A DNA stretch of 64,000 nucleotides from an uncultured Nitrososphaerales archaeon (lineage in GTDB: Archaea; Thermoproteota; Nitrososphaeria; Nitrososphaerales; Gagatemarchaeaceae): assembly GCA_963706445.1 (NCBI GenBank), contig OY970160.1, positions 1,408,001 through 1,472,000 on the forward strand, given 5' to 3'. A model generated the notes under the pieces. It did no database searches. It worked only from the letters and a program-made list of their open reading frames with translations, and had not been told where the DNA came from. A program made the translations under genes and the position numbers. Positions 23,524 to 50,378 of the stretch are shown here, in pieces. Every line of letters begins with the position of its first letter. Positions within the stretch are counted from its first letter, which is position 1.

Positions 23524-24477
23524 TTGTCTGGAGAACTCGTCGTCGTAGCCCTCGGAGGGAACGCCCTTCTTCAGCGTTCGCAGAAGGGTACATTCGATGA
23601 TCAGTATGCCAACGTCAAAAGGACGGCGGAGAAGATCGCCGACCTGGTCCAGGGCGGGTATGAGATCGTGCTCACCCATGGCAACGGCCCTCAGGTCGGG
23701 GCGACGCTCCTGAGGCACGAAGCCGGCAAAGGGCTCGTCCCCCCGCTCCCTCTCGACGCATGCGGTGCCGAAACCCAGGGCTTCATCGGCTACATGATCC
23801 AGCAAGCGCTCAGGAACGTGCTGAAGTCTCGTGGAGTGGACAAGTACGTGGTCACAGTCGTGACGAGGGTCATTGTCGACAAGCATGATCCCGCGTTCGA
23901 GCATCCGACGAAGCCCGTCGGGCCCTTCTACACGAAAGAGGAAGCCGTCCGTCTGAGCCAGAGCATGCCAAACATGACGATCAAGGAAGACGCAGGACGC
24001 GGATACAGAAGGGTTGTACCTTCCCCCGACCCGAAGGTGATAGCCGAGAGGTCTGCCATTCGGACTCTCGTGGACGCGGGCTTCGTGGTAGTGTCGACGG
24101 GGGGCGGAGGGATTCCGATAGTCGAGGAAGATTCGCAAGCAAGGGGGGTAGAAGCGGTGATCGACAAGGACCTTGCCGGCCAGCGCCTCGCCACCTTGAT
24201 CCACGCGAACATCTTCGTGATACTCACGGACGTCGACGGGGCTTACTTGGGTTTCGGAACCCCAAGGCAGGAGCTCATCAAAGAGGTGACGACCGGGAAG
24301 CTGCAAAGATACTTAGACGAAGGACAATTCAAGGAAGGGAGCATGGCACCCAAGGTGCTCGCCGCGATACGTTTCGTCGAAAGCGGCGGAGAAAGGGCGA
24401 TAATAGCAGAGCTTGGAAAGTTGCCTGAAGCGTTGGCGGGCAAGTCAGGTACGCAGGTGGTAGGTCCAGGGGCTTGA
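23524..24477 (+). CDS. arcC: carbamate kinase
   Basis: VALGGNAL, THGNGPQVG, PTKPVGPFY, RRVVPSPDP, GGGGIP, VIDKD, GSMAPKV. Confidence 0.97.
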   Translation: MSGELVVVALGGNALLQRSQKGTFDDQYANVKRTAEKIADLVQGGYEIVLTHGNGPQVGATLLRHEAGKGLVPPLPLDACGAETQGFIGYMIQQALRNVLKSRGVDKYVVTVVTRVIVDKHDPAFEHPTKPVGPFYTKEEAVRLSQSMPNMTIKEDAGRGYRRVVPSPDPKVIAERSAIRTLVDAGFVVVSTGGGGIPIVEEDSQARGVEAVIDKDLAGQRLATLIHANIFVILTDVDGAYLGFGTPRQELIKEVTTGKLQRYLDEGQFKEGSMAPKVLAAIRFVESGGERAIIAELGKLPEALAGKSGTQVVGPGA

Positions 24478-24486
24478 CCTTTCGCC

Positions 24487-25863
24487 TTGGCCGACCCTAG
24501 CTCCGTTCTGATCGAAGACGCCATAATAGTCACCATGGACCCTCGACGGAGGGTCATCGAAGGGGGGCATGTCCTCGTCGAAGGGGGAAGGATATCCGCA
24601 ATCGCTGGGCCGGGTTCGAAGGCGAGACTCAAGGCAGAGCAGACGATCTCGGCGAAAGGGATGGCCGTGATACCGGGACTGATTGACACTCACATCCATC
24701 TGGCCCAGAGCCTCCTGAGAGGGTGCGCAGACGACCTCTCTCTGGTCGACTGGCTGAAGAAAAGGGTCTGGCCCATCCAGGGGTGCTTCACCACGAGCGA
24801 CGGAAGGGTTAGCGCCGAACTCTCGATGCTGGAGATGGTCAAGAGCGGGACCACTTCGTTCGTCGGGGTCGATGTCGTGTCAAGGTATGGGTTCGACGGG
24901 ATAGCGGACGCGGTGGTCGGGGCTGGGATGAGAGGGGCGCTGGCCAAGACGATCATGGACAGCCCAGGATACGGGAGGAAAGGGAGCATGATGCCCGCGG
25001 GGCTCGTGGAAGAGAAAGACGAATGCATCAGAGAAGCGAAATCAATGATCAGGAAGTGGAACAGAATCAAAGGGGGCCGGGTAAGGACCTGGGTAGCCCC
25101 GAGATCCCTTGGCGGGTGCAGCAGGGAGCTCTATGAGGAGGTAGCCGAGCTCGCAAATGAACAGGATACGAGGGTGACGATGCACCTGGCAGAGGTGAGC
25201 GAGGACGTCAAATACGCGAAGGAGAACTTCGGGCTGACTCCTTTCGGGTTCATCGAGAAGGTGAGTCTGGCGGGCCCCCGCTCGCTCTTCGCCCACATGG
25301 TCTGGCTCAGCGACGGCGACGTTGGGAAGGTGGGAAAGACGAAGTCCAACGTGGCGCACTGCCCTTCGTCCAATCTCAAGCTTGCGTCAGGCATTCCAAA
25401 GGTGCCCGAACTGTTGCGGGCGGGGGCGAACCTCGGGCTCGGGTGCGACGGCGCCCCGTGCAACAACTCCCACGACATGATAAGGGAGATGAAACTCGCG
25501 GCAGTGATACAGAAGGGGAGGCTACTCGACCCGCTCACGATGCCCGCCGCGACGGTACTGGAGATGGCGACCCTTGGGGGAGCCCGGGCCATGGGGATGG
25601 AATCGGATGTGGGGTCCATCGAAGTCGGGAAGAGGGCGGACCTGGTGCTCATCGACCTGAAGAAACCCCATCTTGTCCCATACAGAGACATCGTGTCGAA
25701 CTTGGTCTACTCCGCCATGGGGAGCGACGTCGACAGCGTGATGGTGGACGGCAAGCTCCTTCTCCGGCGAGGGAGGGCCCTGACCCTCGACGAAGAGAAG
25801 ATCATGGGTGAGGCGCAGAAGCGGCAGGACGAGCTTATCTCAAGGTCAGGCGTCGGTGCCTAG
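24487..25863 (+). CDS. amidohydrolase, MtaD/DadD-like nucleoside or nucleobase deaminase
   Basis: PGLIDTHIH, MHLAE, AHCPSSNLKLASG, GCDGAPCNN. Confidence 0.88.
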   Translation: MADPSSVLIEDAIIVTMDPRRRVIEGGHVLVEGGRISAIAGPGSKARLKAEQTISAKGMAVIPGLIDTHIHLAQSLLRGCADDLSLVDWLKKRVWPIQGCFTTSDGRVSAELSMLEMVKSGTTSFVGVDVVSRYGFDGIADAVVGAGMRGALAKTIMDSPGYGRKGSMMPAGLVEEKDECIREAKSMIRKWNRIKGGRVRTWVAPRSLGGCSRELYEEVAELANEQDTRVTMHLAEVSEDVKYAKENFGLTPFGFIEKVSLAGPRSLFAHMVWLSDGDVGKVGKTKSNVAHCPSSNLKLASGIPKVPELLRAGANLGLGCDGAPCNNSHDMIREMKLAAVIQKGRLLDPLTMPAATVLEMATLGGARAMGMESDVGSIEVGKRADLVLIDLKKPHLVPYRDIVSNLVYSAMGSDVDSVMVDGKLLLRRGRALTLDEEKIMGEAQKRQDELISRSGVGA

Positions 25864-25875
25864 GAAGTCCGGGCA

Positions 25876-27249
25876 GTGGATCTCCTGGTTACGAACGCTA
25901 GAGTAGTCACCGGCTCCCAGGTCGTCGAGGCAAACATAGGGGTAGAAGACGGGAAAATCGCCTCGGTTTCCCCCAGCCTCCAAGCCACGGGGGCCAGGGT
26001 CATCGATGCGGAGGGGATGATAGTCGTCCCCGGGGGGATAGATGCCCACACCCACATGGAGCTCCCTGTCACTAACACCTCGTCGGCGGACGACTTCTAC
26101 TCGGGGACCGTAGCCGGGGCCTGCGGCGGAATAACGACGATAGTAGATTACGTCGACCCCCAGGCAGGTCAGACGATGCTCGAAGCAGTAGCCGATTACA
26201 GACTGAGGGCGGACAGCAAGGTGGCGGTCGACTACGGCCTGCATATGATGTTCAAGGGGCAGCAACTTCCCGAAATCGACAGGATCCCCGACCTGGTCGA
26301 GGAGGGGATCCCGAGCTTCAAGGTCTACACGGCGTACAGGAAGCGGGGGTTGATGCTGGAAGATCAAGACATCTCAAGGGTGATGAAGAGTGTGGCGTCG
26401 ACCGGGGGGCTGGTAGCCGTGCACGCCGAGAGCGAGGGGATGATCGAGCGCCTGACCAAGGAGAACCTGGCTGTTGGAAACGTGGGGACGAGGTACCATG
26501 CGCTGAGCAGGCCTCCGGCTGCCGAGGCAGAAGCGATATCCAGGGTCACCCGGCTGGCGGACGAAGCCGGGGCGAGGATCTACATCGTCCACCTTTCTAG
26601 CAGGGCGGGGAAGGAGGAGGTCGAGGGGGCGAGGAGGCGCGGGACGAATGTGTTCGCCGAGACATGCCCTCACTACCTGGTCCTCACTGACGATGTCTAC
26701 GAAAGGGAGGACGGACGGAACTTCGTCATGTCACCGGCACTGAAGAAGCCAGAAGATCGCGCCGCCCTCTGGGAAGGGCTGAAGGCAGGTGGGGTCATCG
26801 AGACTGTCGGGAGCGACCACTGCCCGTTCCCGAGCTCGCAGAAGGACTGGGGGATGGACGATTTCACGAAGATACCTAACGGGGTTCCCGGGACGGAGGC
26901 TATCATCCCCATCCTGTACTCAGAAGGGGTGAGGAAAGGGCGAATCTCGATCTACGATATGGTCAGGGTGATATCGGAGGGGCCTGCGAGGCGCTTCGGG
27001 CTCACCCCGTCGAAGGGGTCCATCGCCGTCGGTTCGGATGCAGATTTCGTAGTCATCGACCCGAACAAGCGCGTGAGGATGACCGCGGAGGTGATGCACA
27101 GCAACATCGACTACAGCATCTACGCCGACGTCACGACCGAGGGGTACCCGGTCCTGACGGTGAGCAGGGGGGAGGTCGTGATGGAGGACGGCGAGTTCGT
27201 CGGGAAGAAGGGATGGGGCAGGTTCGTTCCTAGAAGGGCCGCGTCGTAG
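25876..27249 (+). CDS. hydA: dihydropyrimidinase/D-hydantoinase (HyuA-like)
   Basis: PGGIDAHTH, SFKVY (carbamylated Lys), VHAE, IVH, ETCPHYL, GSDHCPF, IPNGVPG. Confidence 0.93.
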   Translation: MDLLVTNARVVTGSQVVEANIGVEDGKIASVSPSLQATGARVIDAEGMIVVPGGIDAHTHMELPVTNTSSADDFYSGTVAGACGGITTIVDYVDPQAGQTMLEAVADYRLRADSKVAVDYGLHMMFKGQQLPEIDRIPDLVEEGIPSFKVYTAYRKRGLMLEDQDISRVMKSVASTGGLVAVHAESEGMIERLTKENLAVGNVGTRYHALSRPPAAEAEAISRVTRLADEAGARIYIVHLSSRAGKEEVEGARRRGTNVFAETCPHYLVLTDDVYEREDGRNFVMSPALKKPEDRAALWEGLKAGGVIETVGSDHCPFPSSQKDWGMDDFTKIPNGVPGTEAIIPILYSEGVRKGRISIYDMVRVISEGPARRFGLTPSKGSIAVGSDADFVVIDPNKRVRMTAEVMHSNIDYSIYADVTTEGYPVLTVSRGEVVMEDGEFVGKKGWGRFVPRRAAS

Positions 27250-27288: not shown

Positions 27289-28653
27289 CTAGCCCAGGGG
27301 CTCCACAGCTTCCGACGGAGATGACCCAAGCCTGCGCCAGAGACCGTCCATGGCCTTCAGCACTTTCGCTTCGGATTTCTGAAGGTCGACCCTCAGGACC
27401 TGCTTGCTTCTCATAATCAATTCGCCGTCCACCACCACGTCCCTCACGTTCGGCCCCTTCAGGCCGTTCACAATGTAGCCGTAGACAGAACCGGCGTAAG
27501 GCGTGGCCAGGAACGACGGACGCACCACGATCAGGTCGGCCCGCTTGCCAGCTTCGAGGGACCCGAGGGACTTCAGCTCATAGGCTTTCGCCGCGTTGAC
27601 GGTGCACATCTCGACGACTTCCTGGGGAGACGGCCTGTTCGGATTCCTCCTCGCCACCCTCTGCAGGAGGAAGGCGGCGCGCATGTTCTCGAACATGTCG
27701 AAGATGTACCCGTCGTTGCCGGCACAGACGTTCACCCCCTTGTCAAGCATCTCCAGAAGGGGAGCGACGCCGACGGCGTTGAGCATGTTGCTCATGGGGT
27801 TGTGGGCAATGCTTGCCGATGAGGCGGCAATCAGATCAATCTCCTCCTCGCTCAGATGGACGCAGTGGGCGAGTACAGACCTCGACGACAGGAGGCCTAC
27901 GTCCTTCAGCCTCTCGACGGACCTCTTGCCATAGCGCTCCATGTTGTGGTAGCCGTCGTTGGGTCCCTCCGAGACGTGGATGGTGAGCGGGACCCTGTGC
28001 TTCTCACTGGCCTCCGCCCCCCGCGAAAGCAGGTCGTCCGAGACGGTGAACGATGCGTGGAGGCTTACCATCCCCATGGCCCTCCCCTTGTCTTTCTTCG
28101 CGATGAACCTCAGACTCTCCTTCAGCCCCCTTCTCCCTTCCTCGATGCTCCTCCTCTCCGTCGCCTCGAATGAGATTATGCCCCTGATGCCAACTTCGTT
28201 CGAAGCCTTCGCGATTTCGTCGAGGGAGCCTTCTATCGAGTTGGGGGCGGAGTATGTGTCCGCAAAGCAAGTCGTCCCGTTCATCAGCGACTCGACGGAC
28301 GCCGACAGGGTCGTCGCATAGGCGTCGGCGTTGGTAAGCGCCTCGTCCACGGGCCACCACACCCTCTGGAGGATCTGAAGGAAGTCTGACGGGGGCTTCA
28401 CGTTCAGCGCTGACCCCCTGAGGGCTATCCCGTACAGATGGGTATGGCCGCAGATGAGCCCCGGCATCACAATGCACCCCCTCGCGTCGATCACCTCGTC
28501 GGGCCCGAAACCCCGGGCGACTCTGTCTGACGGTCCCACGGCAAGTATCCGGCCGTCTTCGATGGCTACGGCTGAATCGTAGATGACTCTCCTGTGTTCG
28601 TCCATGGTCACCACGGTGCCCCCCTTCACGAGGAGTTTGCTTGACAAGGGCAA
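27289..28653 (-). CDS. SsnA-like amidohydrolase
   Basis: PGLICGHTHLY..LRG, FLQILQRVWWPVD (like SsnA LWWRLD), LHASFTVSD, HVSEG, HNPMSNM, GNDG. Confidence 0.85.
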   Translation of the reverse strand: MPLSSKLLVKGGTVVTMDEHRRVIYDSAVAIEDGRILAVGPSDRVARGFGPDEVIDARGCIVMPGLICGHTHLYGIALRGSALNVKPPSDFLQILQRVWWPVDEALTNADAYATTLSASVESLMNGTTCFADTYSAPNSIEGSLDEIAKASNEVGIRGIISFEATERRSIEEGRRGLKESLRFIAKKDKGRAMGMVSLHASFTVSDDLLSRGAEASEKHRVPLTIHVSEGPNDGYHNMERYGKRSVERLKDVGLLSSRSVLAHCVHLSEEEIDLIAASSASIAHNPMSNMLNAVGVAPLLEMLDKGVNVCAGNDGYIFDMFENMRAAFLLQRVARRNPNRPSPQEVVEMCTVNAAKAYELKSLGSLEAGKRADLIVVRPSFLATPYAGSVYGYIVNGLKGPNVRDVVVDGELIMRSKQVLRVDLQKSEAKVLKAMDGLWRRLGSSPSEAVEPLG

Positions 28654-28667
28654 TCACCGACTCTTCG

Positions 28668-29681
28668 CTACGCCAGCGACTTGACCACGTATTCGATGTT
28701 GCCACTGAGTGGAAGGAGTAGTGGGGACTTGCACCCGGCGGCCATGTACTCCTCGATCTTGGCTCTGCACTCTTGAGGCGTCCCCGACGCGGTGAGCATG
28801 CGGACGATCTCGTCTGGCACGATCTTCGTCGCTCTCTCGATGCCCCCTGGCTTGGCTGGCCACCCGCCCATCTCCTTCTGGACGGCGGCAATCAGGTCCT
28901 CGGCCACCCCACTCGCCCTCATGATGTGCGGCTGCTGCCCCAGGGTCATGGTTACATGGCTCTTGGCAAGCTTCACGGCCTTGTCGGAATCCTCGTCCAT
29001 CGAGCATGCGATGAGTTGAGGGGAATCAATCTTGTCGGGGTCCCTTCCAGCCTTCTGAGCCCCGCGCCTGATGCTCTCCCAGGCCTTCTTGTTGTATTCC
29101 GGAGATACGAGGTAGTTCAGCAGGACGCCGTCGGCTATCTCGCCTGCGAGCTCGAGCATCTGGAATCCAGTCCCGCCGATGTATATGGGGACAGCTCTCG
29201 GACCCGCCCCAGTCCCGTGCAGGGTGTCGAGGCTCACGCCGTCCATCTTGACGAACTCCCCCTGGAAGGTGACCTCTTCGGCGTTGAACAGTCGTTTGAT
29301 TACCTGTACGTACTCTCTCATGCACAGTAGGGGCTTGGTCCTGTCTATCCCCACCTTCTTCGCGAGTGGGTCCCACCATGCCCCGAGACCCAGGATGGCC
29401 CTCCCCGCTGAGAGCTCGTCGAGGGTGGCCCAGGTCTGGGCGATTAGGGCGGCGTTCCTAGTCCAGGTGTTTATGACGCCGGCCCCCACCTTGATCCTCT
29501 TTGTGTCCGTCGCGATGGCGGTTACGGGGACGACTGCGTCCCTTGCCAGCCTCGACTCTGCAATCCAGACAGAATCGAACCCATGGTCTTCCGCCACCTG
29601 TGAGAACCTGACCATCTCCCGGACGTGCATGTCCTGGAGGTACAGTCCCAGCCTGCTCAACGAGCCTGGAGCTTTGGACAA
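28668..29681 (-). CDS. LLM-class (luciferase-like, Mer-like, probably F420-dependent) oxidoreductase
   Basis: GFDSVWIAE, GVINTWTRN, ATLDELSAGRAILGLG, PIYIGGTG..MLELAGEIADG. Confidence 0.88.
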   Translation of the reverse strand: MSKAPGSLSRLGLYLQDMHVREMVRFSQVAEDHGFDSVWIAESRLARDAVVPVTAIATDTKRIKVGAGVINTWTRNAALIAQTWATLDELSAGRAILGLGAWWDPLAKKVGIDRTKPLLCMREYVQVIKRLFNAEEVTFQGEFVKMDGVSLDTLHGTGAGPRAVPIYIGGTGFQMLELAGEIADGVLLNYLVSPEYNKKAWESIRRGAQKAGRDPDKIDSPQLIACSMDEDSDKAVKLAKSHVTMTLGQQPHIMRASGVAEDLIAAVQKEMGGWPAKPGGIERATKIVPDEIVRMLTASGTPQECRAKIEEYMAAGCKSPLLLPLSGNIEYVVKSLA

Positions 29682-29844: not shown

Positions 29845-31194
29845 TTGGGAGAGATAACTGCAATCGCCAATGGGGTAGTCATTACAGTCGATCGTAGCGA
29901 CACAATCTACGGAGACGGCGCGGTAATAGTCGAAGATGGAAGGATAATCGATGTTGGTAAGACGGACGAAATCCTGCCAAAGTATAGAAAGGATATTGTC
30001 ATTGATGCGAAGAAGTGCGCAGTGCTACCTGGTTTTGTGAATGCTCACTTTCACTCTGGCACCATCCGAGGAATTGCCGAAGACCTTCCACTGTGGGAGT
30101 GGCTTAGAAGATACATTGATCCGAAGCACCGTGTTCTGACCCCAAGCGATGCCCATGCTTCATCCAGGCTTTGCTACACAGAATCCATCAAAGCGGGCGT
30201 AACCACTGTGCTCGACATGGAGAGGTTCATGGATAGATGTGCTGATTCGGCCGAAGAGGTCGGGCTTAGGGCGGTTCTCGCACCATATGTTTCTGATAAA
30301 TTCGAAGGCTTCGAAAAGCCGGAGGACAACTACAGGCTATTGGCCGAGAGAAATGGCTCGGCGAACGGCAGGGTCAACGTCTGGCTCGGCATGGAGCATC
30401 TGATGTATTGCAGCGAAGAACTCTACAGAAAAGGGGCCGAGCTCGCAAGAAAATACAACGTCGGGATACACACCCACGGGGAAGAGTCAAAAGAGATGGC
30501 AGAGAGGATAACAAAAGAACACGGCGGAAGAAGACCCACGAAGGTTCTGCGCGACTACGGAATCCTAGGGCCACGTACCGTCTTGGCTCACTGCGTCTGG
30601 CTGGATGACGAAGAGATGGGAATAATAGCCGAAACCAAAACCTCCGTAGCTCATTGTCCGGTGAGCAATTTCAAGCTTGCAAGTGGAGTTGCAAGGGTTC
30701 CGGAAATGCTAGGTCTAGGGATAGTAGTGGGCCTTGGAAGTGACGGCATTGAGGAAAACAACAGGATTGACCTCATGCAGGAGATGAAGATGGCTGGACT
30801 GATTCAGAAGGGAACGCATAGAGACGCAACTCTCATGCCCGCGAAAAAGCTGCTTAGGATGGCAACAATCGATGGTGCGACAGCGCTTGGGCTCGGAGGC
30901 GAGGTCGGGTCTTTAGAGAGAGGAAAGAAGGCGGATATCTCGATCCTAGATCTAAATCAACCCCATTTGACACCCGCGCTCACCGGAGAGTTCTTCAATG
31001 TGGTAAGCAACATAGTGTACGCTGCGCAATCTGATGACGTACAAACGGTAATGGTCGACGGTAGAGTGATAATGGAGAATAGAAAGATTGCTCACCTGAA
31101 CGAGCAGGAAATCATTGATGAAGCAACAAAAGCTTCCGTTGGAGTTCTTGAGAGAATAAAGGAACTCGTCCCGCCTGATATCAAGTCGAAGTAA
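29845..31194 (+). CDS. amidohydrolase-family deaminase (low-GC gene)
   Basis: PGFVNAHFH, HTHGEE, HCPVSNFKLASG, GSDG. Real start probably TTG 29845; the ORF-track extension is antisense to the LLM gene. Confidence 0.88.
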   Translation: MGEITAIANGVVITVDRSDTIYGDGAVIVEDGRIIDVGKTDEILPKYRKDIVIDAKKCAVLPGFVNAHFHSGTIRGIAEDLPLWEWLRRYIDPKHRVLTPSDAHASSRLCYTESIKAGVTTVLDMERFMDRCADSAEEVGLRAVLAPYVSDKFEGFEKPEDNYRLLAERNGSANGRVNVWLGMEHLMYCSEELYRKGAELARKYNVGIHTHGEESKEMAERITKEHGGRRPTKVLRDYGILGPRTVLAHCVWLDDEEMGIIAETKTSVAHCPVSNFKLASGVARVPEMLGLGIVVGLGSDGIEENNRIDLMQEMKMAGLIQKGTHRDATLMPAKKLLRMATIDGATALGLGGEVGSLERGKKADISILDLNQPHLTPALTGEFFNVVSNIVYAAQSDDVQTVMVDGRVIMENRKIAHLNEQEIIDEATKASVGVLERIKELVPPDIKSK

Positions 31195-31284
31195 CCGCGA
31201 TTCGCTTAGGTCGACTAACGAGTTAGACGCCTACAACCGGAGAACTGCGACCCTGCGTCAAATATTAAAACCAATCAATTCCGC

Positions 31285-32893: not shown

Positions 32894-33691
32894 CTATGGA
32901 GCAACAGCCCCGCTTGTTGAAGAGGAGGTCGAGTGTACGACCTCTTTGTCGGCCTCGGGAAGTTCGTACCACTTCTTCCTCTCTCCGACAGCGGCCCTCA
33001 TCTTCCAACCCATGCTCTTCGGGGCTGCCCTCGATAGACTTCTTCAGGTTCTCCGCTTGCTCCGGATGCTCTCTTCTTCTGTTCCTCTTCGAGGCCGACC
33101 TTCGTTCGCGAATTCAGGGATTTTCGCCAGGTTCGTGGTGAACGTCTTGTAGATCCCCCAGTCCTCGGCGCAGAGCCTAGCGATGTAGCTGCCGTTGATC
33201 TTGTCCTGGGAGTCTTCCGTCCGAGGTCGTGGTCTAGCAGTATTGCCATGACGTCCTTCATGTCCTTCTCGTTGATCTCCACAATCTGAAGCTTGGTCGA
33301 GAGGACAGGTCCGCAAGTGGGAGCGTCTCCCGTTCTCGAGGTCAATCCGCTTCTTGAAGTCAAACTTGTGGCACATTTCGAAGACGTCCAGGAAGACGTC
33401 CACCCGCCTGCGTGTTCGCAGGTCGTTGAAGATCAGCCTGGTGACCTGAAATGCGTTGAATCTCTCTCTCGGCGTGTACCCGAGTTCTTTGAAGAGTTGG
33501 CTGATCTTAGCGGTCTCCTTCCGGTGGCCGATCACGTCGATGTCGACCTCGCGCCTAGCAGCGGAGGCTTCCTGCGGAAGGGCACCGCGTAACCACGGCG
33601 ACCCCCCCGATGAGGCGGAGGGTGATGCCGTTCTCATCGGCGGCTCGAATTATCCGTGTCGGCTTCGTCTTCGAGGTGACTCTAGTGGCAT
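32894..33691 (-). pseudogene. nucleotidyltransferase-like hypothetical gene, multiply frameshifted
   Basis: Fragments in different frames: ITLRLIGG, DIDVIG, FNAFQVTRL, VDVFLDVFEMCH, TKLQIVEINEKDMKD, CAEDWGIYKT, WKMRAAVGERKKWYELPE. Confidence 0.7.
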
Positions 33692-35625: not shown

Positions 35626-35629
35626 TCTT

Positions 35630-42705: not shown

Positions 42706-43737
42706 CTACTCTACTATGTCGAAGCCCTTCTGGTACTTCGCGAGCTGCTCCATGGTGTAAGGGTCGAGCTGCTTGCTAGTGCGAGTTACGACCTGCTTCT
42801 TCTTTATCCCGAACACCTCGGTGGAGAGGTACCTTCCTCCGGAGTCGTTGATTACAGTCGCGATCCTTCCAAGCTCCGGGTGCGTCTTTGACAGCTTCAC
42901 GGCAGCCACAACATTGCATCCTGAGGAGATCCCACAGAAGATCCCTTCCGCCCTCGCCAGCCGCTTGGTCATTTCGATGGCTTCGTCTGAGGTCGTGGTG
43001 ACAACGCCGGTCAGGAGGCTGAGGTCGAGGTTCATTGGCACGAAACCGTCGCCGATTCCCTCTATCTTGTGGGTCCCCCACTTGGCGTGGGCGAGTATCG
43101 GCGCCTCCGATGGCTCGACGGCGTAGAGCTTCACCTTCGGGTTCTTCTCCCGAAGATACCTGCCGATCCCGGAAAGGACTCCGCCGGTCCCCTGGGATGC
43201 TACAAAGGCGTCGACCTTGCCACCCATCTGGCTCCACAGCTCGGGCCCCGTGGCCTTGTAGTGCGCCATGGGGTTGTCAGGGTTTGAGAACTGCGAAGGG
43301 ACCCAGTACTTCCCTCTGCTCTTCTTGAGGATCTCCTCGATCTTGTCCAGGCAGAGGTCAACGTCGCTCTCGGCCCCGGGAGTGAGGATGAGCTCCCCGC
43401 CGAACGCCTTGATCATCTTCTTCCGCTCGTCGCTCATCCCTTCGGGCATGACGATGGTCACCTTGTATCCCATCCTGGTGCCGATGAAGGCGCAGGCGAT
43501 CCCCGCGTTCCCTGTCGAGGCCTCAAGGATCTCCATCCCGGGCTTGAGGTCTCCCCGGTTGATGGCCCCCAGTATCATCTCCTTGTAGATCCGGTCTTTC
43601 AGGCTCTCTGTGGGGTTGAACGCCTCCAGTTTAGCGAAGACCTCCGCCTTGATCTTCTCCTCGGCAGGGATTTTCGAGAGGCGGACGGTGGGGGTGTCCC
43701 CTATGATGTCCAGTATGGAGTTATCCTTTCCGAGCAA
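42706..43737 (-). CDS. cysteine synthase-like PLP enzyme (divergent)
   Basis: IGDTPTV, KLEAFNPTESLKDR, ASTGNAG, QFSN, SQGTGG, IEGIG, GISSG, DSGGRYLST. SD GGAGG precedes the TTG. Confidence 0.88.
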   Translation of the reverse strand: MLGKDNSILDIIGDTPTVRLSKIPAEEKIKAEVFAKLEAFNPTESLKDRIYKEMILGAINRGDLKPGMEILEASTGNAGIACAFIGTRMGYKVTIVMPEGMSDERKKMIKAFGGELILTPGAESDVDLCLDKIEEILKKSRGKYWVPSQFSNPDNPMAHYKATGPELWSQMGGKVDAFVASQGTGGVLSGIGRYLREKNPKVKLYAVEPSEAPILAHAKWGTHKIEGIGDGFVPMNLDLSLLTGVVTTTSDEAIEMTKRLARAEGIFCGISSGCNVVAAVKLSKTHPELGRIATVINDSGGRYLSTEVFGIKKKQVVTRTSKQLDPYTMEQLAKYQKGFDIVE

Positions 43738-43752: not shown

Positions 43753-44829
43753 CTATCTCCCGCGTTTGGAGCCCATGACCATGGCCATGACCGCCTTCTG
43801 GACGTGCAGCCTGTTCTCCGCCTGCTCGAAGTAGAGGGAGTACTTCGGGCTGTCGATGACCTCGTCGGTGGCCTCCTGTCCTCTGTCCGCAGGACCGCAG
43901 TGCATGTACTTCCCCCTGTTGGTCAGGTCCATCATCTCCTGGGTGCACTTCCAGTCGGTGAACTTGTTCTGGTACTCCGACGCCGCGTCCTTGTTCACGG
44001 TCTTGCTGTATGGGGGGACGAACCCCTTTGGAGACCAGGCCTTGGGGTAGACGAAGTCTGCCCCTTCGAACGCCTCCTTCATGTCGTTCGAGACCTTGAA
44101 GCTCCCGCCGTACCTGTCGGCGTTCTCCTCGCACGCCTTGATGACGTTGTCTTCGAGCTCGAACCCCTTCGGGTGGGCTAGGACGACGTCCATGCCGAAC
44201 TGGGTGCCGATCAGGACACAGCTCTGCGGGACCGCGAGGGGCTTCAGCCCTCCCGAGTAGGCGTAGGAGACGACGAACTTCTTCTTCTTCGGTCTTGGCG
44301 CGACATCGACAATGGCCTTCATGTCTGCCAGAGCCTGAAACGGGTGGTAGATGTCGTCCTCCATGTTGAGGACCGGGATGTCGGCCCATTTGGCGAACTC
44401 CTGGATTATCCTGTGACCCCTACCGATTATCCACTTGGCGGCGTCCCCGTAGCACCTGATCGCTATCGAGTCCCCGTACCTGGAAAGCACCCTGCCTACG
44501 TCTGCTATGGCCTCTGTCTGGTATGGGACCATGTCCTCTGGGAGGGACGGGGTATACACGTCGCTGGGGCTCAGGAAGTGCGCGTGGCCACCAAGCTGAT
44601 AGATCCCGGCTTCAAATGAATTCCTTGTCCTGAGGGACCTGTTGTAGAACATCATGAACAGGGTGTTCCCGGGGAGATAGGGGGTGTTGGCCCTCTTTCG
44701 GAACTTCACCTTGAGGTCCTCGGCCGCCTTGAGGATCCCGGCTATCTTCTCCTGAGGATAGTCGTTCGTGTTCAGGAAGTCTTTGCCCGCCATTGAACCG
44801 ACATAGGATGGTGCTTTCATGACAGGCAT
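43753..44829 (-). CDS. transcarbamylase (YgeW-like) no. 2
   Basis: SLRT, HPFQ, YAYS..LKPLAVPQ (YgeW has WAYS..KPLSVPQ), VYPKAW, HCGPAD, QAENR. Confidence 0.88.
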   Translation of the reverse strand: MPVMKAPSYVGSMAGKDFLNTNDYPQEKIAGILKAAEDLKVKFRKRANTPYLPGNTLFMMFYNRSLRTRNSFEAGIYQLGGHAHFLSPSDVYTPSLPEDMVPYQTEAIADVGRVLSRYGDSIAIRCYGDAAKWIIGRGHRIIQEFAKWADIPVLNMEDDIYHPFQALADMKAIVDVAPRPKKKKFVVSYAYSGGLKPLAVPQSCVLIGTQFGMDVVLAHPKGFELEDNVIKACEENADRYGGSFKVSNDMKEAFEGADFVYPKAWSPKGFVPPYSKTVNKDAASEYQNKFTDWKCTQEMMDLTNRGKYMHCGPADRGQEATDEVIDSPKYSLYFEQAENRLHVQKAVMAMVMGSKRGR

Positions 44830-44874: not shown

Positions 44875-45759
44875 TTGTCGTCTGTCGAGCTCTACTCACC
44901 CACTGACCTCGCAGACGCACTCAGGTTCATCGAGCACAAGGGAGAGGAAGTCGCGGTGATCGCCAGCGGGACGGACCTAATCCCGCGGATGCGGAAGAGG
45001 CAGGTCTCGCCGTCGGTGCTTCTTGACATATCGTCGTTCCAGAGCGACCTAAGGTATGTCCGCCAGTCGGACGGAGGAGTTAGCCTGGGGGCGCTGACCA
45101 CCCTCACCGACGTTTTGGAATCGTCCCTTTTCAACGGAAAGCTTTCGGTCATTCACGAAGCGGCTGAGATATTCGGCGCCCCCCAGGTCCGCAACGTCGC
45201 CACGGTCGGGGGGAACGTCTGCTCCGCTGCGTCTTCCGAAGACCTGATCCCTGTCCTCATGGCCCTCGGCGCCCGGCTCAAGGTCATAAGCTCCGGAGGG
45301 GAGCGCACGGTCCCCATCAAAGATTTCGTCGTAGGGAAGCGCGAGACGGCGTTGAAGCCGTCGGAGATCCTGGCTGAGGTCCGCTTCGACTATCCGAAGG
45401 GGAAGTACTGGACGGGGTTCGAGAAGCTCGGGCGCAGGAACATGCTCATCATCTCTCTTGTCAGCATGGCCATGCGCCTGACCCTGGAAGACGACCTGAG
45501 CACGGTCCGTTCGGCGAGCATCGCCCTCAACAGAGTGTCGGGGAGGGTCCCGGCCCTGGCGTCGAAGACGGAAGAGTTCCTAGTGGGGAGCAAGCTCTCC
45601 GAGAAGACGATCGTGGAAGCCCAGAAGGTTCTGGCCACGGAGCTGGCTCTGACGAGCGACTTCCGGAGCTCGGCGGCTTACCGCATGGAGATCGCCCAGG
45701 TCTATCTGAAGAGGCTGCTGCTCAGATGCTCCGAGAGGATCAGGAGAGAGACAGAATGA
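44875..45759 (+). CDS. Xdh/Cox-family FAD-binding subunit
   Basis: ASGTDL, QVRNVATVGGN, SDFRSSAAYR. Confidence 0.93.
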   Translation: MSSVELYSPTDLADALRFIEHKGEEVAVIASGTDLIPRMRKRQVSPSVLLDISSFQSDLRYVRQSDGGVSLGALTTLTDVLESSLFNGKLSVIHEAAEIFGAPQVRNVATVGGNVCSAASSEDLIPVLMALGARLKVISSGGERTVPIKDFVVGKRETALKPSEILAEVRFDYPKGKYWTGFEKLGRRNMLIISLVSMAMRLTLEDDLSTVRSASIALNRVSGRVPALASKTEEFLVGSKLSEKTIVEAQKVLATELALTSDFRSSAAYRMEIAQVYLKRLLLRCSERIRRETE

Positions 45760-46229
45760 CGAGAAGGGTGATCTCGCTGAACGTCAACGGAGCCGAGCGG
45801 TCGGTGCAGGTCGGCCCCCTGGAGAGACTGATCGATGTGCTAAGGGATGAATTGTGGTTGAAGTCGGTGAAGGAGGGGTGCAGTACGGGCGACTGCGGAA
45901 TCTGCGCCGTCATGGTGGACGGGAAGTTGGTGAATAGCTGTCTTATGCTCGCAGCCCAGTGCGATGGAAGAAGGGTGCTGACCCTTGAAGGGCTGCAGAA
46001 CGACCTGACCATGAAGAGGCTGCAGGGGAGCTTCATCGCCAACAACGCCGCCCAGTGCGGCTTCTGCACCCCGGCGATGCTGATGGCATCCTGGGACCTG
46101 GCCAGGCACTCGTCGAAGCCGTCGACCGAGGAGGTCAAGGTGGCCATGAGTGGGATACTCTGCAGGTGCACGGGGTACTATCAGATCATAGATTCGGTCA
46201 AGCAGGGGTGCAGGGAGGAGAGGCGTTGA
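45756..46229 (+). CDS. Xdh/Cox-family 2Fe-2S small subunit
   Basis: GCSTGDCGIC..SC, QCGFC, LCRCTGY. ATGA overlap with the upstream gene. Confidence 0.95.
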   Translation: MTRRVISLNVNGAERSVQVGPLERLIDVLRDELWLKSVKEGCSTGDCGICAVMVDGKLVNSCLMLAAQCDGRRVLTLEGLQNDLTMKRLQGSFIANNAAQCGFCTPAMLMASWDLARHSSKPSTEEVKVAMSGILCRCTGYYQIIDSVKQGCREERR

Positions 46230-48571
46230 GCGAGCAGGTCTCTCAGCTTCTCGACTCGCTCAGGGAGAAGGCGGCGAAGGGGGAGCTCCTATACATAGGG
46301 GAGAACATAGCCAGGGTCGACTCCCTGGAGAAGGTCCTGGGGAAGCCGGTCTACACCGCCGACCTCATCCCCAAGGGGACCCTGTACGCGAAACTCTTCC
46401 ACTCCTCGGTGCCCCATGGGACGATCAGGGCGATGGAGCTGGGCGCCGCGAAGGCCTACCCGGGGGTCCTTGGGGTGCTGACCTGGAGGGACATCCCTGG
46501 GCTCAACCAGTCCTCGGCCGTGCTCCCTGACAGGCAGCTCTTCGCCGAGCCGGTGGTGCGTTCGACGGCAGACATTCTGGGGGCTGTAGTTGCGGAGACG
46601 TTACCTGCGGCCACGGAGGCGGCGTCGAGGGTCAGGGTCGAGTACACCCCGATCCCTGCCAACTACGACCCGATGGAAGCGCTGAGGCCGGACGCCTACA
46701 AGATCCATCCGAAGGGGAACATAGCGAGGCAGATGAAAATCAGGAAGGGGAACGTCGAAGACGGGTTTGCGAAGTCAGATGTGATCATCGAGAAGACGTA
46801 CAAGACGCAGTTCCAGGACGCGACCCCCCTGGAGCCAGAGGTGGGGCTCGCCATCCCCGAGGACGGCGGGGTCAAGGTCATAGGCTCGATGCAGAGCCCT
46901 CATCACACTCAGGCTGCGGTCGCCAAGGTCATCGGCCTCCCCCCGGAGAAGGTGCACGTTATACAGGCCATCACCGGGGGAGCCTTCGGGCCGAAGTCGG
47001 ACGAGACGCCCTTCGACGTGTGTTCCACGGCAGCCCTCGCGGCGATGAAGTACAGGCGTCCGGTCTTCTGCGGCCTGGACAGGGAGGACTCCATGGTCAT
47101 GCACACCAAGAGGCACCCCTTCGTCATCAGCCACAAGACAGGGGTGACGTCTGATGGGATGCTGGTGGCCGATGAGTCCATGATAGTCGGAGACACCGGA
47201 GCCTATGCGTCCCTGGGGGTGTTCGTGATCGTGCGTGCGACGTTCCACACGGTGGGGGCCTACGAAGTCCCCAACGTAAAGGCGGACTCCTACCTCGTCT
47301 ACACCAACAACACCTACACTGGGAGCCTGAGGGGGTTCGGAGGGCCCCAGGCGCTGTTCGCCATTGAGAGCCAGATGGAGGAGCTGGCCCGCAAGCTCGG
47401 GATGGACCCGCTGGAGTTCAGGCTGAGGAACATGCTGGTCCCCGGGAAGAAGAACGCTACTTCGGCGGTCATGGACGCCAGCTGCGGACTCCCCGAGTGC
47501 GTCGAGAAGGTGGTAGCATCGAGCAACTATTGGGAGAAGGCAGCGAGGTACCGCGATCAGACGGGGAGCGTCAGGCGGGGGCTGGGCATCGCGCTTCTGA
47601 TGCACGGCAACTCGCTCGGACCAGAGGGGAACGACTACGGGGCGGTCCACATGGAAATCGAATCTGACGGGACAGTGTCGGTCGGGACAGGGCTCACCGA
47701 ATACGGGACTGGTGCGATCTCCGGGCTGATGCAGGTCGCTTCCAGCATACTGGGGGTGCCGCTGACAAGGTTCAAGCTCGAGCGTCCGGACACCACCAAG
47801 CACAGGGAGAGCGGCCCGACCGTCGCGTCCAGAGTGGTCGTGATAGGTGGGAACGCCGCCATGAAAGCTGCCGAGAAGCTGAAGGGCACCCTGATGCCCC
47901 TTGCGGCGCAGATGCTGAAAGCAAGCCCCGGGGACGTGGCGTTGGTAGACGGGGTCGCCTTCGACCGACAGAATCCATCCGCGACCCTGGCCTGGAATGA
48001 CCTCGTCGCGGAAGCGTACAGGAGGGGGCTGAACCTGAAGGAGGAGGGGTTCTACATGGCTCCGGCGGCGCCATGGGACACGGAGTCGGGCCAGGGGACC
48101 CCCTACGTGCAGTACACCTGGGGAGCCCTGATTGCGGAGGTGGAGGTGGACACAGAAACTGGCTACTACAAAGTGGTGGGGGTCCACACTGCCTACGACG
48201 TCGGCAAGGCGGTCAACCCCGCTGGCGTCCTGGGCCAGATATACGGCGGCACCGTGCAGGGGCTCGGTTACGCCATGATGGAGGAGCTCATCCACAAGGA
48301 CGGGTTCGTGGTGAACCCCAACCTGGGGGACTACTACATCCCCACGTCGATGGACATCCCTGCAGAGTTCAAGGCGTTCATAGTGGAGGTGCCCGGCCCG
48401 CTGGGACCCTTCGGTGCCAAAATAATCGCCGAGCCCCCCATCGTCCTCCCTGGACCTGCGATCCGGAACGCCGTGCTCAACGCGACAGGCGTCTCCGTGG
48501 ACGAGCTGCCGGTGACCTCCGAAAAGGTCCTGATGGGGTCCAAGGCAAGGCCGTCACCATTGGCGGTTTAG
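46226..48571 (+). CDS. Xdh-family molybdopterin-binding large subunit no. 2 (atypical motifs)
   Basis: GGAFGPK, SLRGFGGPQ, EYGTG, TVASR, AKIIAEPP. TTGA overlap start at 46226. Confidence 0.93.
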   Translation: MSEQVSQLLDSLREKAAKGELLYIGENIARVDSLEKVLGKPVYTADLIPKGTLYAKLFHSSVPHGTIRAMELGAAKAYPGVLGVLTWRDIPGLNQSSAVLPDRQLFAEPVVRSTADILGAVVAETLPAATEAASRVRVEYTPIPANYDPMEALRPDAYKIHPKGNIARQMKIRKGNVEDGFAKSDVIIEKTYKTQFQDATPLEPEVGLAIPEDGGVKVIGSMQSPHHTQAAVAKVIGLPPEKVHVIQAITGGAFGPKSDETPFDVCSTAALAAMKYRRPVFCGLDREDSMVMHTKRHPFVISHKTGVTSDGMLVADESMIVGDTGAYASLGVFVIVRATFHTVGAYEVPNVKADSYLVYTNNTYTGSLRGFGGPQALFAIESQMEELARKLGMDPLEFRLRNMLVPGKKNATSAVMDASCGLPECVEKVVASSNYWEKAARYRDQTGSVRRGLGIALLMHGNSLGPEGNDYGAVHMEIESDGTVSVGTGLTEYGTGAISGLMQVASSILGVPLTRFKLERPDTTKHRESGPTVASRVVVIGGNAAMKAAEKLKGTLMPLAAQMLKASPGDVALVDGVAFDRQNPSATLAWNDLVAEAYRRGLNLKEEGFYMAPAAPWDTESGQGTPYVQYTWGALIAEVEVDTETGYYKVVGVHTAYDVGKAVNPAGVLGQIYGGTVQGLGYAMMEELIHKDGFVVNPNLGDYYIPTSMDIPAEFKAFIVEVPGPLGPFGAKIIAEPPIVLPGPAIRNAVLNATGVSVDELPVTSEKVLMGSKARPSPLAV

Positions 48572-48608
48572 CCGCTAGCGCTGCCGGGTCTCGGATGCTT
48601 TCCAGTCT

Positions 48609-50378
48609 TTATGAAGCGAAGGGCGGGACGAACTTCTGTCCGTCTACGTCGAACATCCCCTTGTCTGTTATCCTGGCGTGAGGGATCACGGAGAGGGGGA
48701 GCAGGTTCGGGAGGGGCATGTAGGGGTGGTCGAGGACTCCCATCCTCCTGAAAGCGCCGCGCAGCCGGACGACCTCCTTTGAGACCCTCGTGACGCTGTG
48801 CTCTGAAATCAGGCCGGCGATCGGGAGCTCCACTAGGGCCAGGGTCTTGAGGTCGAGGACAGCCGCGATGCCTCCGCGGCTCTTAATCACCAGGTTCGCC
48901 GCTGCCCGCATGTCTTCCACGTCCGTCCCCACCACGAGGAGGTTGTGGGAATCGTGGGCTACGGTCGTCGCCATGGCTCCCCGGCGGATAAGATTCCTGA
49001 CGAAGCCGAAGGACCTCCCGCCGTTCCTCCCGTGCCTCTCGAAGACGAAGACTAGTGCGACTTCGCCCAGAGACAGCTTCCCCTTTCTGACCCGCACCTT
49101 CGCTCTGTTCAGTTTGGTCAGGATCATTCTTGCGAAGGCTTCTCCCTTGTCTTCGCGCTTCCCGAAGCCGCTGAAATCTATGGTGTTGACGTCGACAACG
49201 CCGTCGCTAACGGGGGGCCGGACCTCGAAGTCCTTCAGGCTCAGGGGGTTCAGTTTCATCGTCTCTTTGGTCGCAGGATCAAACTCCCTGTCCCCGAGGC
49301 TGACGAGCATCCTCCCGTTTCTCGCGACCAGCGCCCCGTTCGCCACGACGGCCTTGACGTTGAACTTCTTCACGTCGTCGAGGAGGACTATGTCGGCGAC
49401 TTTGCCTGGGGAGATGGAGCCGATGTCGTACCTCCTCATGTGAAGGGCAGGCCTCAGGGTCACGCTCCTCACCGCCTCCACCGGGTCCATGCCAGCCTGG
49501 ATGAACGACCTGCAGACATAGTCGAGATGCCCGAACCTCGTGAGGTTATCGGGGAGGACGTCGTCGGTGCATAGGATCAGGTTGTACGGGTGCGGGATGC
49601 CACGGAGCGCTTTGACGAACTTCCTCGGTTCTAGGATGTAGGGCCCCCTCAGCTTGACGTACAGCCCCAGCCTCAGCTTCTCCAGCATGGCCTCCACGGT
49701 GAAGTTCTCGTGGTCTGCTTCGGCCCCGGACGCGACGTATGCGTTGAGTTCGAGCCCCGTGAGGAGTGGAGCATGGCCGTCCACGACCGCCCCGTGCTCT
49801 TCGCCGACCTGGAGTATCCTCATCATCTTCTCGCCCCCGTTCAGCACCGCTGTGTAGTCCATCACCTCACCAAGGCCCCACACGCCCTTCCAGCCGAGCA
49901 TCTCCTCGATGTCGCCGGGGGTGAGCTCAGCACCGGCGGTCACCGCATCCGACTCGGGGACGCAGGTCGGGGCGAAATAGAACTGCTTCTGAGGGAGTCC
50001 CCGGCTGTCTTTGATCATCGCCTTCACCCCCTCCTTTCCCATTACGTTCGCGATTTCATGAGGGTCGGCGAAAGCCGTCGTAAGGCCGTGCGGGAGGGTG
50101 GCCGCGGCGAACTTCGAGGGAGTCACCATGCTGCTCTCGATGTGTAGGTGAGAGTCGATGAGCCCGGGAACCGCGACCTTGCCTCTGCCATCTATCGAGC
50201 GGGCGGCGGGGGGGCATCCCGAAGGGTTGCCTACGTAGACGATTCTGTCCCTGTATACCCCGATCGATGCGTCCTGCATCTCGCCTGTGAAGACGTTGAA
50301 CAGGGTCGTGTTGCGGATGGCGAGCGTTAGCTCTTTCTTTCCTAACGCGGCAGAGATGTAATCGATACGGGCCGACAT
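48609..50378 (-). CDS. ade: adenine deaminase (AdeC type)
   Basis: PGLIDSHLHIESS, DPHEIANV, GEVM, DGHAP, DHE, CTDD, ERHG, VAHDSHN. Confidence 0.95.
   Translation of the reverse strand: MSARIDYISAALGKKELTLAIRNTTLFNVFTGEMQDASIGVYRDRIVYVGNPSGCPPAARSIDGRGKVAVPGLIDSHLHIESSMVTPSKFAAATLPHGLTTAFADPHEIANVMGKEGVKAMIKDSRGLPQKQFYFAPTCVPESDAVTAGAELTPGDIEEMLGWKGVWGLGEVMDYTAVLNGGEKMMRILQVGEEHGAVVDGHAPLLTGLELNAYVASGAEADHENFTVEAMLEKLRLGLYVKLRGPYILEPRKFVKALRGIPHPYNLILCTDDVLPDNLTRFGHLDYVCRSFIQAGMDPVEAVRSVTLRPALHMRRYDIGSISPGKVADIVLLDDVKKFNVKAVVANGALVARNGRMLVSLGDREFDPATKETMKLNPLSLKDFEVRPPVSDGVVDVNTIDFSGFGKREDKGEAFARMILTKLNRAKVRVRKGKLSLGEVALVFVFERHGRNGGRSFGFVRNLIRRGAMATTVAHDSHNLLVVGTDVEDMRAAANLVIKSRGGIAAVLDLKTLALVELPIAGLISEHSVTRVSKEVVRLRGAFRRMGVLDHPYMPLPNLLPLSVIPHARITDKGMFDVDGQKFVPPFAS

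Follow-up and report, generated by a model that had tools for sequence, protein, structure and literature searches.

A gene island in a Nitrososphaerales archaeon that may encode reductive degradation of the purine ring with several replaced enzymes

The genome of an uncultured Nitrososphaerales archaeon of the Gagatemarchaeaceae (GenBank assembly GCA_963706445.1) contains a gene island of approximately 27 kb that may mediate the reductive degradation of purines. The island occupies positions 22846–50378 of the window, by which we mean the entire stretch of 64,000 nucleotides that was analyzed (contig OY970160.1, positions 1,408,001 to 1,472,000, forward strand). Genes were called from an open reading frame listing together with Pfam and NCBIfam scans of the window. 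An earlier note on this DNA had listed a carbamate kinase, a hydantoinase, an SsnA-like and several other amidohydrolases, an adenine deaminase, two Xdh-family trimers, two transcarbamylases, two pyridoxal phosphate (PLP) enzymes, a luciferase-like monooxygenase (LLM) family reductase, a permease, and a purine phosphoribosyltransferase (PRTase). Genes of all these classes are present, as follows (bit scores are given with the cutoffs of the respective models).

22846–23337, minus strand: purine PRTase-like gene, left edge of the island; weak matches to xanthine/hypoxanthine PRTase models (72 bits, below cutoffs)
23524–24477, plus strand: carbamate kinase (CK), counterpart of YqeA/ArcC; TIGR00746, 426 bits (cutoff 358)
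24487–25863, plus strand: AH1, TRZ/ATZ-type amidohydrolase; best model 5'-deoxyadenosine deaminase, 448 bits (cutoff of 522 missed)
25876–27249, plus strand: D-hydantoinase/dihydropyrimidinase, counterpart of HyuA; TIGR02033, 489 bits (cutoff 393)
27289–28653, minus strand: SsnA-like amidohydrolase; best matched by two SsnA models (376 and 351 bits, both cutoffs missed)
28668–29681, minus strand: Mer-like LLM oxidoreductase; PF00296, best NCBIfam matches all F420-class LLM proteins
29845–31194, plus strand: AH2, TRZ/ATZ amidohydrolase by family scans; GC content 0.51
31285–32625, plus strand: AH3, TRZ/ATZ amidohydrolase by family scans
32936–33656, minus strand: NTP_transf_5-like pseudogene with one frameshift; tblastn with the intact ortholog from locus L079 matches in two frames at 52–62% identity
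33923–35613, plus strand: APC-family permease pseudogene, with pieces in frames 2, 3, 2, and 1
35633–36585, minus strand: pseudogene of a conserved 316-residue protein of no recognized family
36651–37676, minus strand: CT1, carbamoyltransferase other than ornithine carbamoyltransferase (OTC), by motifs and tree
37701–38195, minus strand: Xdh trimer 1, [2Fe-2S] subunit; PF01799 and PF00111
38192–39085, minus strand: Xdh trimer 1, FAD subunit; PF00941 and PF03450
39082–41373, minus strand: Xdh trimer 1, Mo subunit; PucD/XdhA-like, 533 bits (cutoff of 784 missed)
41436–42689, minus strand: ThrC-like PLP enzyme; NF006050, 305 bits (cutoff 303), PDB matches are threonine synthases
42706–43737, minus strand: CysK-like PLP enzyme; TIGR01136, 355 bits (cutoff 344)
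43753–44829, minus strand: CT2, second non-OTC carbamoyltransferase, by motifs and tree
44875–45759, plus strand: Xdh trimer 2, FAD subunit, by Pfam scan
45726–46229, plus strand: Xdh trimer 2, [2Fe-2S] subunit, by Pfam scan
46226–48571, plus strand: Xdh trimer 2, Mo subunit; translation from a TTG codon preceded by a GGAGG-like motif
48609–50378, minus strand: adenine-deaminase-like gene, right edge of the island; TIGR01178, 431 bits (cutoff of 472 missed)

The order in which the earlier note listed the genes has to be revised: CK, AH1, and the hydantoinase gene come first on the plus strand, with gaps of 9 nt (CK to AH1) and 12 nt (AH1 to hydantoinase), and run convergently toward the SsnA-like and LLM genes on the minus strand. 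The SsnA-like gene is located 14 nt downstream of LLM. Seven genes form a minus-strand operon that runs from CT2 through the CysK-like and ThrC-like genes and the Mo, FAD, and FeS subunits of Xdh trimer 1 to CT1, with gaps of 15–62 nt and 4-nt overlaps at two junctions. Xdh trimer 2 (FAD, FeS, Mo) is divergent from CT2. At the left edge, the PRTase-like gene, which has a paralog of 70% identity elsewhere in the genome, adjoins CK also in the congeners G429 and G018 and at loci L079 and L085. The adenine-deaminase-like gene at the right edge adjoins LLM in Caldarchaeum and Bathyarchaeia loci too.

This gene content recalls the reductive urate pathway, which was worked out as recently as 2025 and in gut bacteria alone. 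Its first enzyme in E. coli and Clostridium, XdhD–YgfM or XdhAC, reduces urate to 2,8-dioxopurine ("yanthine"), which is then dearomatized by YgfK or UacX. SsnA and HyuA open the rings to give 2,3-diureidopropionate. YgeW (or UacY) uses phosphate and, together with YqeA, gives rise to ATP, YgeY strips off the other ureido group, and YgeX releases pyruvate and ammonia (Li et al. 2025, PMC12507026; Liu et al. 2025, bioRxiv 10.1101/2025.04.24.650524). Archaea are mentioned in neither study. From gene neighborhoods only, Li et al. noted that Chloroflexota carry a gene of the luciferase family, putatively dependent on F420, instead of YgfK (PMC12507026, Fig. 3c and Discussion). Our literature search found no description of such a pathway in archaea, as the earlier note had supposed, but the exchange of YgfK for an LLM protein is not new, since it had already been suggested for Chloroflexota (PMC12507026).

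The SsnA-like protein scores 376 bits with NF005540 (cutoff 444) and 351 bits with a second SsnA model (cutoff 455), approximately 90 bits above the next family. In a first tree, built from the 150 best cluster representatives, it and E. coli SsnA fall into one supported clade, with AH1–AH3 and GuaD outside. A second tree, to which the SsnA proteins encoded beside bacterial LLM orthologs were added, contains a 57-row SsnA clade (support 99) that includes the window protein and excludes AH1–AH3. This clade comprises a bacterial branch with E. coli SsnA and proteins from Actinomycetota and Chloroflexota (support 100), and an archaeal branch with the SsnA proteins of Nitrososphaeria and Haloarcula (support 81). 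At sixteen alignment columns, both branches show conservation of 90% or more and the paralogs differ; the window protein contains all 16 of these SsnA-specific residues in addition to the general metal and catalytic residues. Judged from phylogeny and residues, this protein belongs to an archaeal branch of the SsnA family and is predicted to be a ring-opening amidohydrolase, which bears out the assignment made in the earlier note. The neighborhoods of its nearest relatives outside the Nitrososphaeria (P0122 and P0123) hold no purine-informative context, and the nearest such gene lies beside genes for a methenyl-tetrahydromethanopterin (H4MPT) cyclohydrolase and a creatininase-family protein.

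The counterparts of HyuA and YqeA are clear and exceed the curated cutoffs, also in agreement with the earlier note. The hydantoinase and E. coli HyuA share 40% identity across 460 residues, and CK, which occurs as a single copy in the genome, is 46% identical to E. coli YqeA. In a tblastn search, the best genome matches of E. coli HyuA, YqeA, and SsnA all fall within the island (40%, 46%, and 32% identity). The hydantoinase also matches allantoinase models with 288–293 bits, below their cutoffs. E. coli GuaD finds its best genome match in AH1 (26%). The best PDB matches of AH1 are a methylthioadenosine/S-adenosylhomocysteine deaminase (4f0r) and 8-oxoguanine deaminase, and AH1 is kept at about 80% identity in G429, G018, L079, and L085. 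This protein is a probable base or nucleoside deaminase that would feed the pathway.

The earlier note had found no YgfK, YgeY, or YgeX in the window. Profile searches, with which tblastn using the E. coli proteins agrees, extend this observation to the entire 1.82-Mb genome. The best match to the YgfK model TIGR03315 (245 bits, cutoff 835) covers only the GltD-like part and is located 1.06 Mb from the island. The best match for YgeY (124 bits, cutoff 321.5) is a DapE/ArgE-type gene 230 kb away, and for YgeX the best score in the genome is 35 bits (cutoff 532).

The LLM protein has its best PDB match in the F420-dependent methylene-H4MPT reductase Mer (1z69, 166 bits), and the genome encodes CofD (303 bits, cutoff 257) and two Fno proteins (182 and 152 bits, cutoff 150). 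By this relationship, we propose that LLM is an F420H2-dependent reductase that replaces YgfK. A scan for further LLM orthologs, queried with an aligned set of orthologs against a single genome for each species, retrieved at least 566 loci. The identity within this ortholog group is 52–85%. The best 80 loci include Caldarchaeales (71–75%) as well as Bathyarchaeia, Haloarcula, Chloroflexota, Actinomycetota, Acidobacteriota, and others at 52–57%. The window protein is 52–57% identical to the SsnA-adjoining LLM proteins of the latter three phyla, with which it has the motifs GAWW[DE]PLA and GGWPAKPG in common. Although many LLM loci are cut by contig ends, SsnA is encoded no more than 10 kb from LLM at 41 of the 62 bacterial loci, at 6 of the 8 from Nitrososphaeria, and at 3 of the 4 from haloarchaea. 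Of the 62 bacterial loci, 37 contain a gene for an Xdh Mo subunit. Beside the LLM–SsnA pair, ThrC-like and CysK-like genes turn up repeatedly, whereas YgeY-like genes are found in six loci and a YgeX-like gene in one. The order is LLM followed by SsnA in Nitrososphaeria and SsnA followed by LLM in bacteria. Since LLM orthologs adjoin SsnA and Xdh genes across phyla, the island of the window belongs to the LLM variant as an archaeal representative.

Two further groups of archaea carry LLM loci of varied composition. Loci L105, L110, and L112, the last from the cultured Haloarcula salina YGHS18, combine an LLM ortholog with SsnA, a hydantoinase, and a ThrC-like gene, to which L105 and L110 add a transcarbamylase, a carbamate kinase, and a YgeY-like gene. 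Locus L113 of Haloarcula japonica DSM 6131 showed only LLM and a gene for a UacT-like transporter. In Bathyarchaeia (L090, L095, and L100), LLM occurs with adenine deaminase, an AH1-like amidohydrolase (51–53%), and Xdh-family genes. Two Mo subunits are encoded in each of L090 and L100, and L095 also contains CT1-type and CT2-type transcarbamylases and a carbamate kinase. Neither SsnA nor a hydantoinase is found within 10 kb of LLM at these three loci.

The two carbamoyltransferases find their best models in the N-acetylornithine/ornithine carbamoyltransferases. Both keep the carbamoyl-phosphate motifs (STRTR and HPTQ in CT1, SLRTR and HPFQ in CT2), but the ornithine-binding DxxxSMG loop and the HCLP motif are missing: CT1 contains FPRSWASH and HVLP, and CT2 contains YPKAWSPK and HCGP. 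A YgeW-like P[KR]SWA motif is common to the carbamoyltransferases (PRSWA in CT1). CT1 is 72% identical to the Caldarchaeum copy and forms with it and the Bathyarchaeia copies a clade that is sister to the clade of E. coli YgeW and the transcarbamylases of the bacterial LLM clusters. CT2 belongs to a separate, archaea-only clade (support 99). With the YgeW model TIGR03316, the two proteins score only 146 and 143 bits (cutoff 500). The designation "YgeW-like" in the earlier note is thus a loose one: CT1 joins the YgeW clade with weak support, and CT2 falls outside it. Because CT2 tracks the pathway genes across genomes (see below) and the genome has no YgeY, it is reasonable to regard CT2 as a candidate stand-in for YgeY that would take off the second ureido group by phosphorolysis. 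The best genome match of E. coli YgeW itself (36%) is encoded outside the island, at C1:1674700-1680900 (L019), 226 kb away. This third carbamoyltransferase is similar to N-acetylornithine carbamoyltransferases (NF003384, 305 bits, above the cutoff of 288), is flanked by two genes of the ornithine cyclodeaminase family, and has an aldehyde dehydrogenase gene nearby.

An XdhD-type enzyme, as used by the bacterial pathway on which the earlier note had modeled the island, is not present. The XdhD model TIGR03313 gives 299–308 bits with the island Mo subunits (cutoff 1102), and the XdhD-specific 11-residue insertion with E606 is missing in both of them and in all aligned archaeal relatives. The FeS and Mo subunits are unfused, and the best SelD match in the genome reaches 55 bits (cutoff 125). 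We rejected XdhD orthology for the two island trimers and for a third genomic copy, all of which are XdhA/PucD-like, score below all curated cutoffs, and do not contain the insertion. In trimer 1, the motif with the catalytic Glu (AKGVGE) is retained in the Mo subunit. The Mo subunit of trimer 2 is 46–49% identical to the only Xdh in the cluster of Caldarchaeum. Aligned with bovine xanthine oxidase, it retains the counterparts of R880, F914, and E1261, with E802 replaced by Ser and F1009 by Leu. The third Xdh-type trimer of the genome (C1:1643800-1653300, L018) is closest to 4-hydroxybenzoyl-CoA reductase and XdhA models and adjoins genes for a shortened adenine-deaminase-like protein and for a maturation factor of the XdhC type. 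From these neighbors, L018 may be a second purine-related locus.

The ThrC-like protein is the only ThrC homolog of the genome, and orthologs at 61% identity or more occur only in cluster-bearing relatives. We also considered a single clade of cluster-linked ThrC-like proteins apart from housekeeping ThrC and discarded it, as the backbone of the tree did not resolve and orthology found no support. The CysK-like protein, with a 37% identical paralog elsewhere in the genome, matches cysteine synthases and O-ureido-L-serine synthase in the PDB. The role of this PLP pair and the entry chemistry of the molybdenum enzymes are the weakest parts of the model presented below.

The entire island is collinear in the congeners G429 and G018 (70–91% identity) and in soil metagenome contigs, and "Ca. 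Caldarchaeum" contains a compact version with a Bmp/ABC transporter, adenine deaminase, LLM, SsnA, an Xdh trimer, a CT1-type transcarbamylase, CK, and two PLP enzymes. The comparison of gene neighborhoods suggested in the earlier note therefore comes out in favor of a conserved unit. Because the arrangement recurs in relatives and across phyla, it is not a product of chance. Within the genus the island is rare: an SsnA ortholog was found in 1 of 36 congeners (G018), and G429 came from a second draw. On the left, the island is flanked by an abhydrolase gene and genes for tRNA-Leu and tRNA-Thr (20907–22841), and on the right by an Fe-S assembly gene and an AspA-like gene (51009–52827). The abhydrolase and AspA-like genes are 29.7 kb apart here and 4–10 kb apart in island-less congeners, with a housekeeping thrC between them. 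Since the flanks close up around this thrC in congeners without the island, and since the island is rare in the genus, gain and loss seem to affect it as one unit.

A survey of 400 Nitrososphaeria genomes, which are mutually related so that the counts describe the distribution but do not test it statistically, detected orthologs of SsnA in 24 genomes, LLM in 24, CT2 in 22, and CK at a tier of at least 64% identity in 23. All of these fall inside one union of 26 genomes, 17 of which contain all four genes. None of the four occurs in the two large families of the window's own order (0 of 223 and 0 of 78 genomes), which we take to be ammonia oxidizers. In another family (f26), SsnA-like proteins of 50–55% identity and LLM are encoded in 16 of 17 genomes.

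Two parts of the island appear to be in flux. The NTP_transf_5-like gene, the APC permease gene, and the gene for the 316-residue protein, between AH3 and CT1, can only be read in two to four frames. Their orthologs are intact in the two congeners and a metagenome relative (L079), where they are 69–94% identical to one another, and G429, G018, and L079 each contain an intact ortholog of the permease with 541 residues. The broken genes are approximately 50% identical to these intact orthologs, whereas the other island genes of the same relatives are 70–91% identical to those of the window. Assembly error was rejected as the source of the frameshifts, which are limited to three adjacent genes with about 50% divergence while some 20 neighbors are intact. 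By this comparison, the three genes at 32936–36585 are pseudogenes. The permease reported in the earlier note does exist as a gene (33923–35613), but with its frameshifts it cannot be counted as functional, and its two neighbors share this fate; the island's dedicated transporter seems to be dead in this genome. The stretch with AH2 and AH3 (29845–32625) has a GC content of 0.51, compared to about 0.60, and the two genes are not in the clusters of the relatives (G429 and G018 for both, also L079 for AH2). AH2 and AH3 are probably a recent, strain-specific insertion.

The host genome, from the Nitrososphaeria, consists of a single contig of 1.82 Mb with an archaeal small-subunit rRNA and is rated 95% complete. 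Its closest named homologs come from assemblies labeled "Nitrososphaerales archaeon". The genome contains two genes for subunit I of haem-copper oxidases, which makes the fermentation proposed in the earlier note doubtful, and we do not read the island as the trait of a fermenting anaerobe. No match to AmoA was found in the genome, which is weak evidence because the control set held no ammonia oxidizer. Sheridan et al. (PMC10640624) described soil Thaumarchaeota that do not oxidize ammonia, without mention of purine catabolism, and the GC content and lifestyle of the host fit this group.

Taken together, we consider it reasonably probable (about 0.65) that the island encodes an oxygen-independent, reductive degradation of the purine ring that follows the logic of the urate/2,8-dioxopurine pathway with several enzymes replaced. 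That purines are the substrate is deduced from gene context. Bases would be funneled into oxopurines by adenine deaminase and the TRZ/ATZ deaminases, which the Xdh-family trimers would interconvert, probably to 2,8-dioxopurine or a similar substrate. The Mer-like LLM would take the place of YgfK by reducing and dearomatizing the purine with F420H2, recharged by Fno from NADPH. The SsnA-like enzyme, apparently co-transcribed with LLM, would open the first ring and the hydantoinase the second to give a diureido acid. CT1 and CT2 would phosphorolyze the ureido groups and CK would convert the carbamoyl phosphate to ATP; with both transcarbamylases active, the yield could reach two ATP per purine. 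As the least certain step, the ThrC-like and CysK-like enzymes would dispose of the three-carbon amino acid instead of YgeX. Ammonia, CO2, a three-carbon unit, and ATP are the most likely products of purine breakdown by this predicted route.

With the E. coli/Clostridium pathway the island shares an SsnA-family hydrolase, a HyuA-type hydantoinase, CK, a carbamoyltransferase weakly grouped with YgeW, Xdh-family molybdenum enzymes, the tight clustering with purine deaminases, and the presumed logic of reducing the substrate, opening two rings, and harvesting carbamoyl phosphate. In contrast, its genome is devoid of YgfK/UacX, YgeY, YgeX, SelD, and a fused XdhD-type enzyme. The island contains in their place a Mer-like LLM, an archaea-specific second carbamoyltransferase, and the ThrC-like/CysK-like pair, and the host carries haem-copper oxidases instead of being a gut anaerobe. 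The Chloroflexota F420 variant is similar in that an orthologous LLM adjoins SsnA, often with ThrC-like/CysK-like genes near, but differs from the island, in which SsnA belongs to its own archaeal branch, the CT2 clade was found in archaea only, and the LLM–SsnA order is reversed; the published remark concerns bacteria only. The predicted formation of ATP by a phosphorolytic carbamoyltransferase and a carbamate kinase resembles that of arginine deiminase-type systems (OTC and CK). Unlike in those systems, the island proteins contain no DxxxSMG and have HVLP or HCGP instead of HCLP, and no arginine deiminase is encoded in the island.

Several observations weigh against this interpretation. The scores of the SsnA-like protein, CT1, and CT2 fall short of the curated cutoffs for SsnA and YgeW, the grouping of CT1 with YgeW has a Shimodaira–Hasegawa-like approximate likelihood ratio (SH-aLRT) support of only 80, and CT2 falls outside the YgeW clade. 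The Mo subunits are separate from the FeS subunits and do not have the XdhD insertion, SelD is missing from the genome, and the type of Xdh beside the same core differs among relatives. The ThrC-like protein reaches the threonine synthase cutoff as the sole thrC homolog and may simply make threonine; the only supported group in its tree unites Haloarcula, Chloroflexota, and Acidobacteriota (98). A genome-wide search did not find the FO-synthase genes CofG and CofH, which makes the supply of F420 uncertain: its synthesis either relies on salvaged FO, or the two genes have diverged beyond recognition. The permease, the transporter of the island, survives here only as a pseudogene. Finally, SsnA-like and LLM orthologs are scattered among housekeeping genes in family f26. 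This last objection had to be revised, since the joint distribution of SsnA, LLM, CK, and CT2 shows that the set is present but dispersed. As a whole, the interpretation in the earlier note passes most of the comparative tests, but its XdhD and YgeW equivalogs and fermentation are not supported.

The same enzyme logic could also serve another N-heterocycle, such as pyrimidines or hydantoins, pterins or lumazines, or oxopurines that bypass 2,8-dioxopurine. The hydantoinase meets the dihydropyrimidinase model, the closest solved relative of LLM acts on a pterin (methylene-H4MPT), the TRZ/ATZ amidohydrolases include pterin and 8-oxoguanine deaminases, no XdhD-type enzyme is encoded, and the nearest SsnA-like gene outside the Nitrososphaeria has the H4MPT-related and creatininase-family neighbors mentioned above. 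We nevertheless regard such a substrate as rather unlikely, given that adenine deaminase and the purine PRTase-like gene flank the core, that a Bmp-type nucleoside transporter accompanies it in Caldarchaeum, that the SsnA-specific residues are common with the branch of the characterized E. coli enzyme, and that trimer 2 retains the equivalents of bovine R880, F914, and E1261. Allantoin fermentation pairs a transcarbamylase with a carbamate kinase, and the island could be cast as a classical allantoin/oxalurate route with the hydantoinase as allantoinase, one carbamoyltransferase as oxamate transcarbamylase, and CK as the source of ATP. The pairing of transcarbamylase and CK and the subthreshold allantoinase matches (288–293 bits) would fit this scheme. 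We consider it very improbable: no uricase family finds a match above cutoff in the whole genome, the D-hydantoinase score of 489 is far above the allantoinase score of 288, and the conserved LLM–SsnA pair, the second transcarbamylase, and the PLP pair would be left unexplained.

An equally slim chance is that the island represents no single pathway but a mosaic of salvage deaminases, generic Mo-hydroxylases, and biosynthetic enzymes (threonine synthase, cysteine synthase, and arginine-type transcarbamylases) that are neighbors by chance. For such a mosaic speak the biosynthetic family cutoffs reached by the ThrC-like and CysK-like proteins, the position of the island at the thrC site of congeners together with a ThrC-like protein that is the only ThrC homolog in the genome, the recent insertion of AH2 and AH3, and the three dead genes. 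It is countered by the recurrence of the core in two congeners, metagenome relatives, Caldarchaeales, Bathyarchaeia, Haloarcula, Chloroflexota, and Actinomycetota, by the operon-tight spacing, by the single distribution of four genes across 400 genomes even where they are unlinked, and by the absence of the ornithine-binding DxxxSMG from both transcarbamylases.

If the reductive purine pathway operates as proposed, it would extend to a second domain of life and to soil and hot-spring habitats. The widespread Mer-like LLM family and the archaeal SsnA branch would acquire a function, and the two transcarbamylases would suggest a higher-yield variant with double carbamoyl-phosphate formation. The poorly understood relatives that do not oxidize ammonia would gain a heterotrophic source of nitrogen and energy, and the gene set is near-universal in one of their families (16 of 17 genomes). 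A broader idea is offered more tentatively: non-ammonia-oxidizing Nitrososphaeria, Bathyarchaeia, and Haloarcula might possess a distinct archaeal form of reductive purine catabolism. It would combine F420H2-dependent dearomatization by a Mer-like protein, two carbamoyltransferases that double the ATP yield to two per purine, and ThrC-like/CysK-like enzymes in place of diaminopropionate ammonia-lyase, with the C3-N skeleton possibly passing to an amino acid and not to pyruvate, in oxygen-respiring soil and hot-spring archaea, for which nucleobases would be a significant source of nitrogen and energy. A related locus in cultured Haloarcula species makes the idea directly testable.

Two tRNA genes in the window were predicted by ARAGORN with lengths that suggest introns, a tRNA-Thr of 93 nt in the left flank of the island (22749–22841) and a tRNA-Arg of 94 nt (57854–57947). 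Rfam at its gathering score did not confirm the tRNA-Thr call at 22749–22841.

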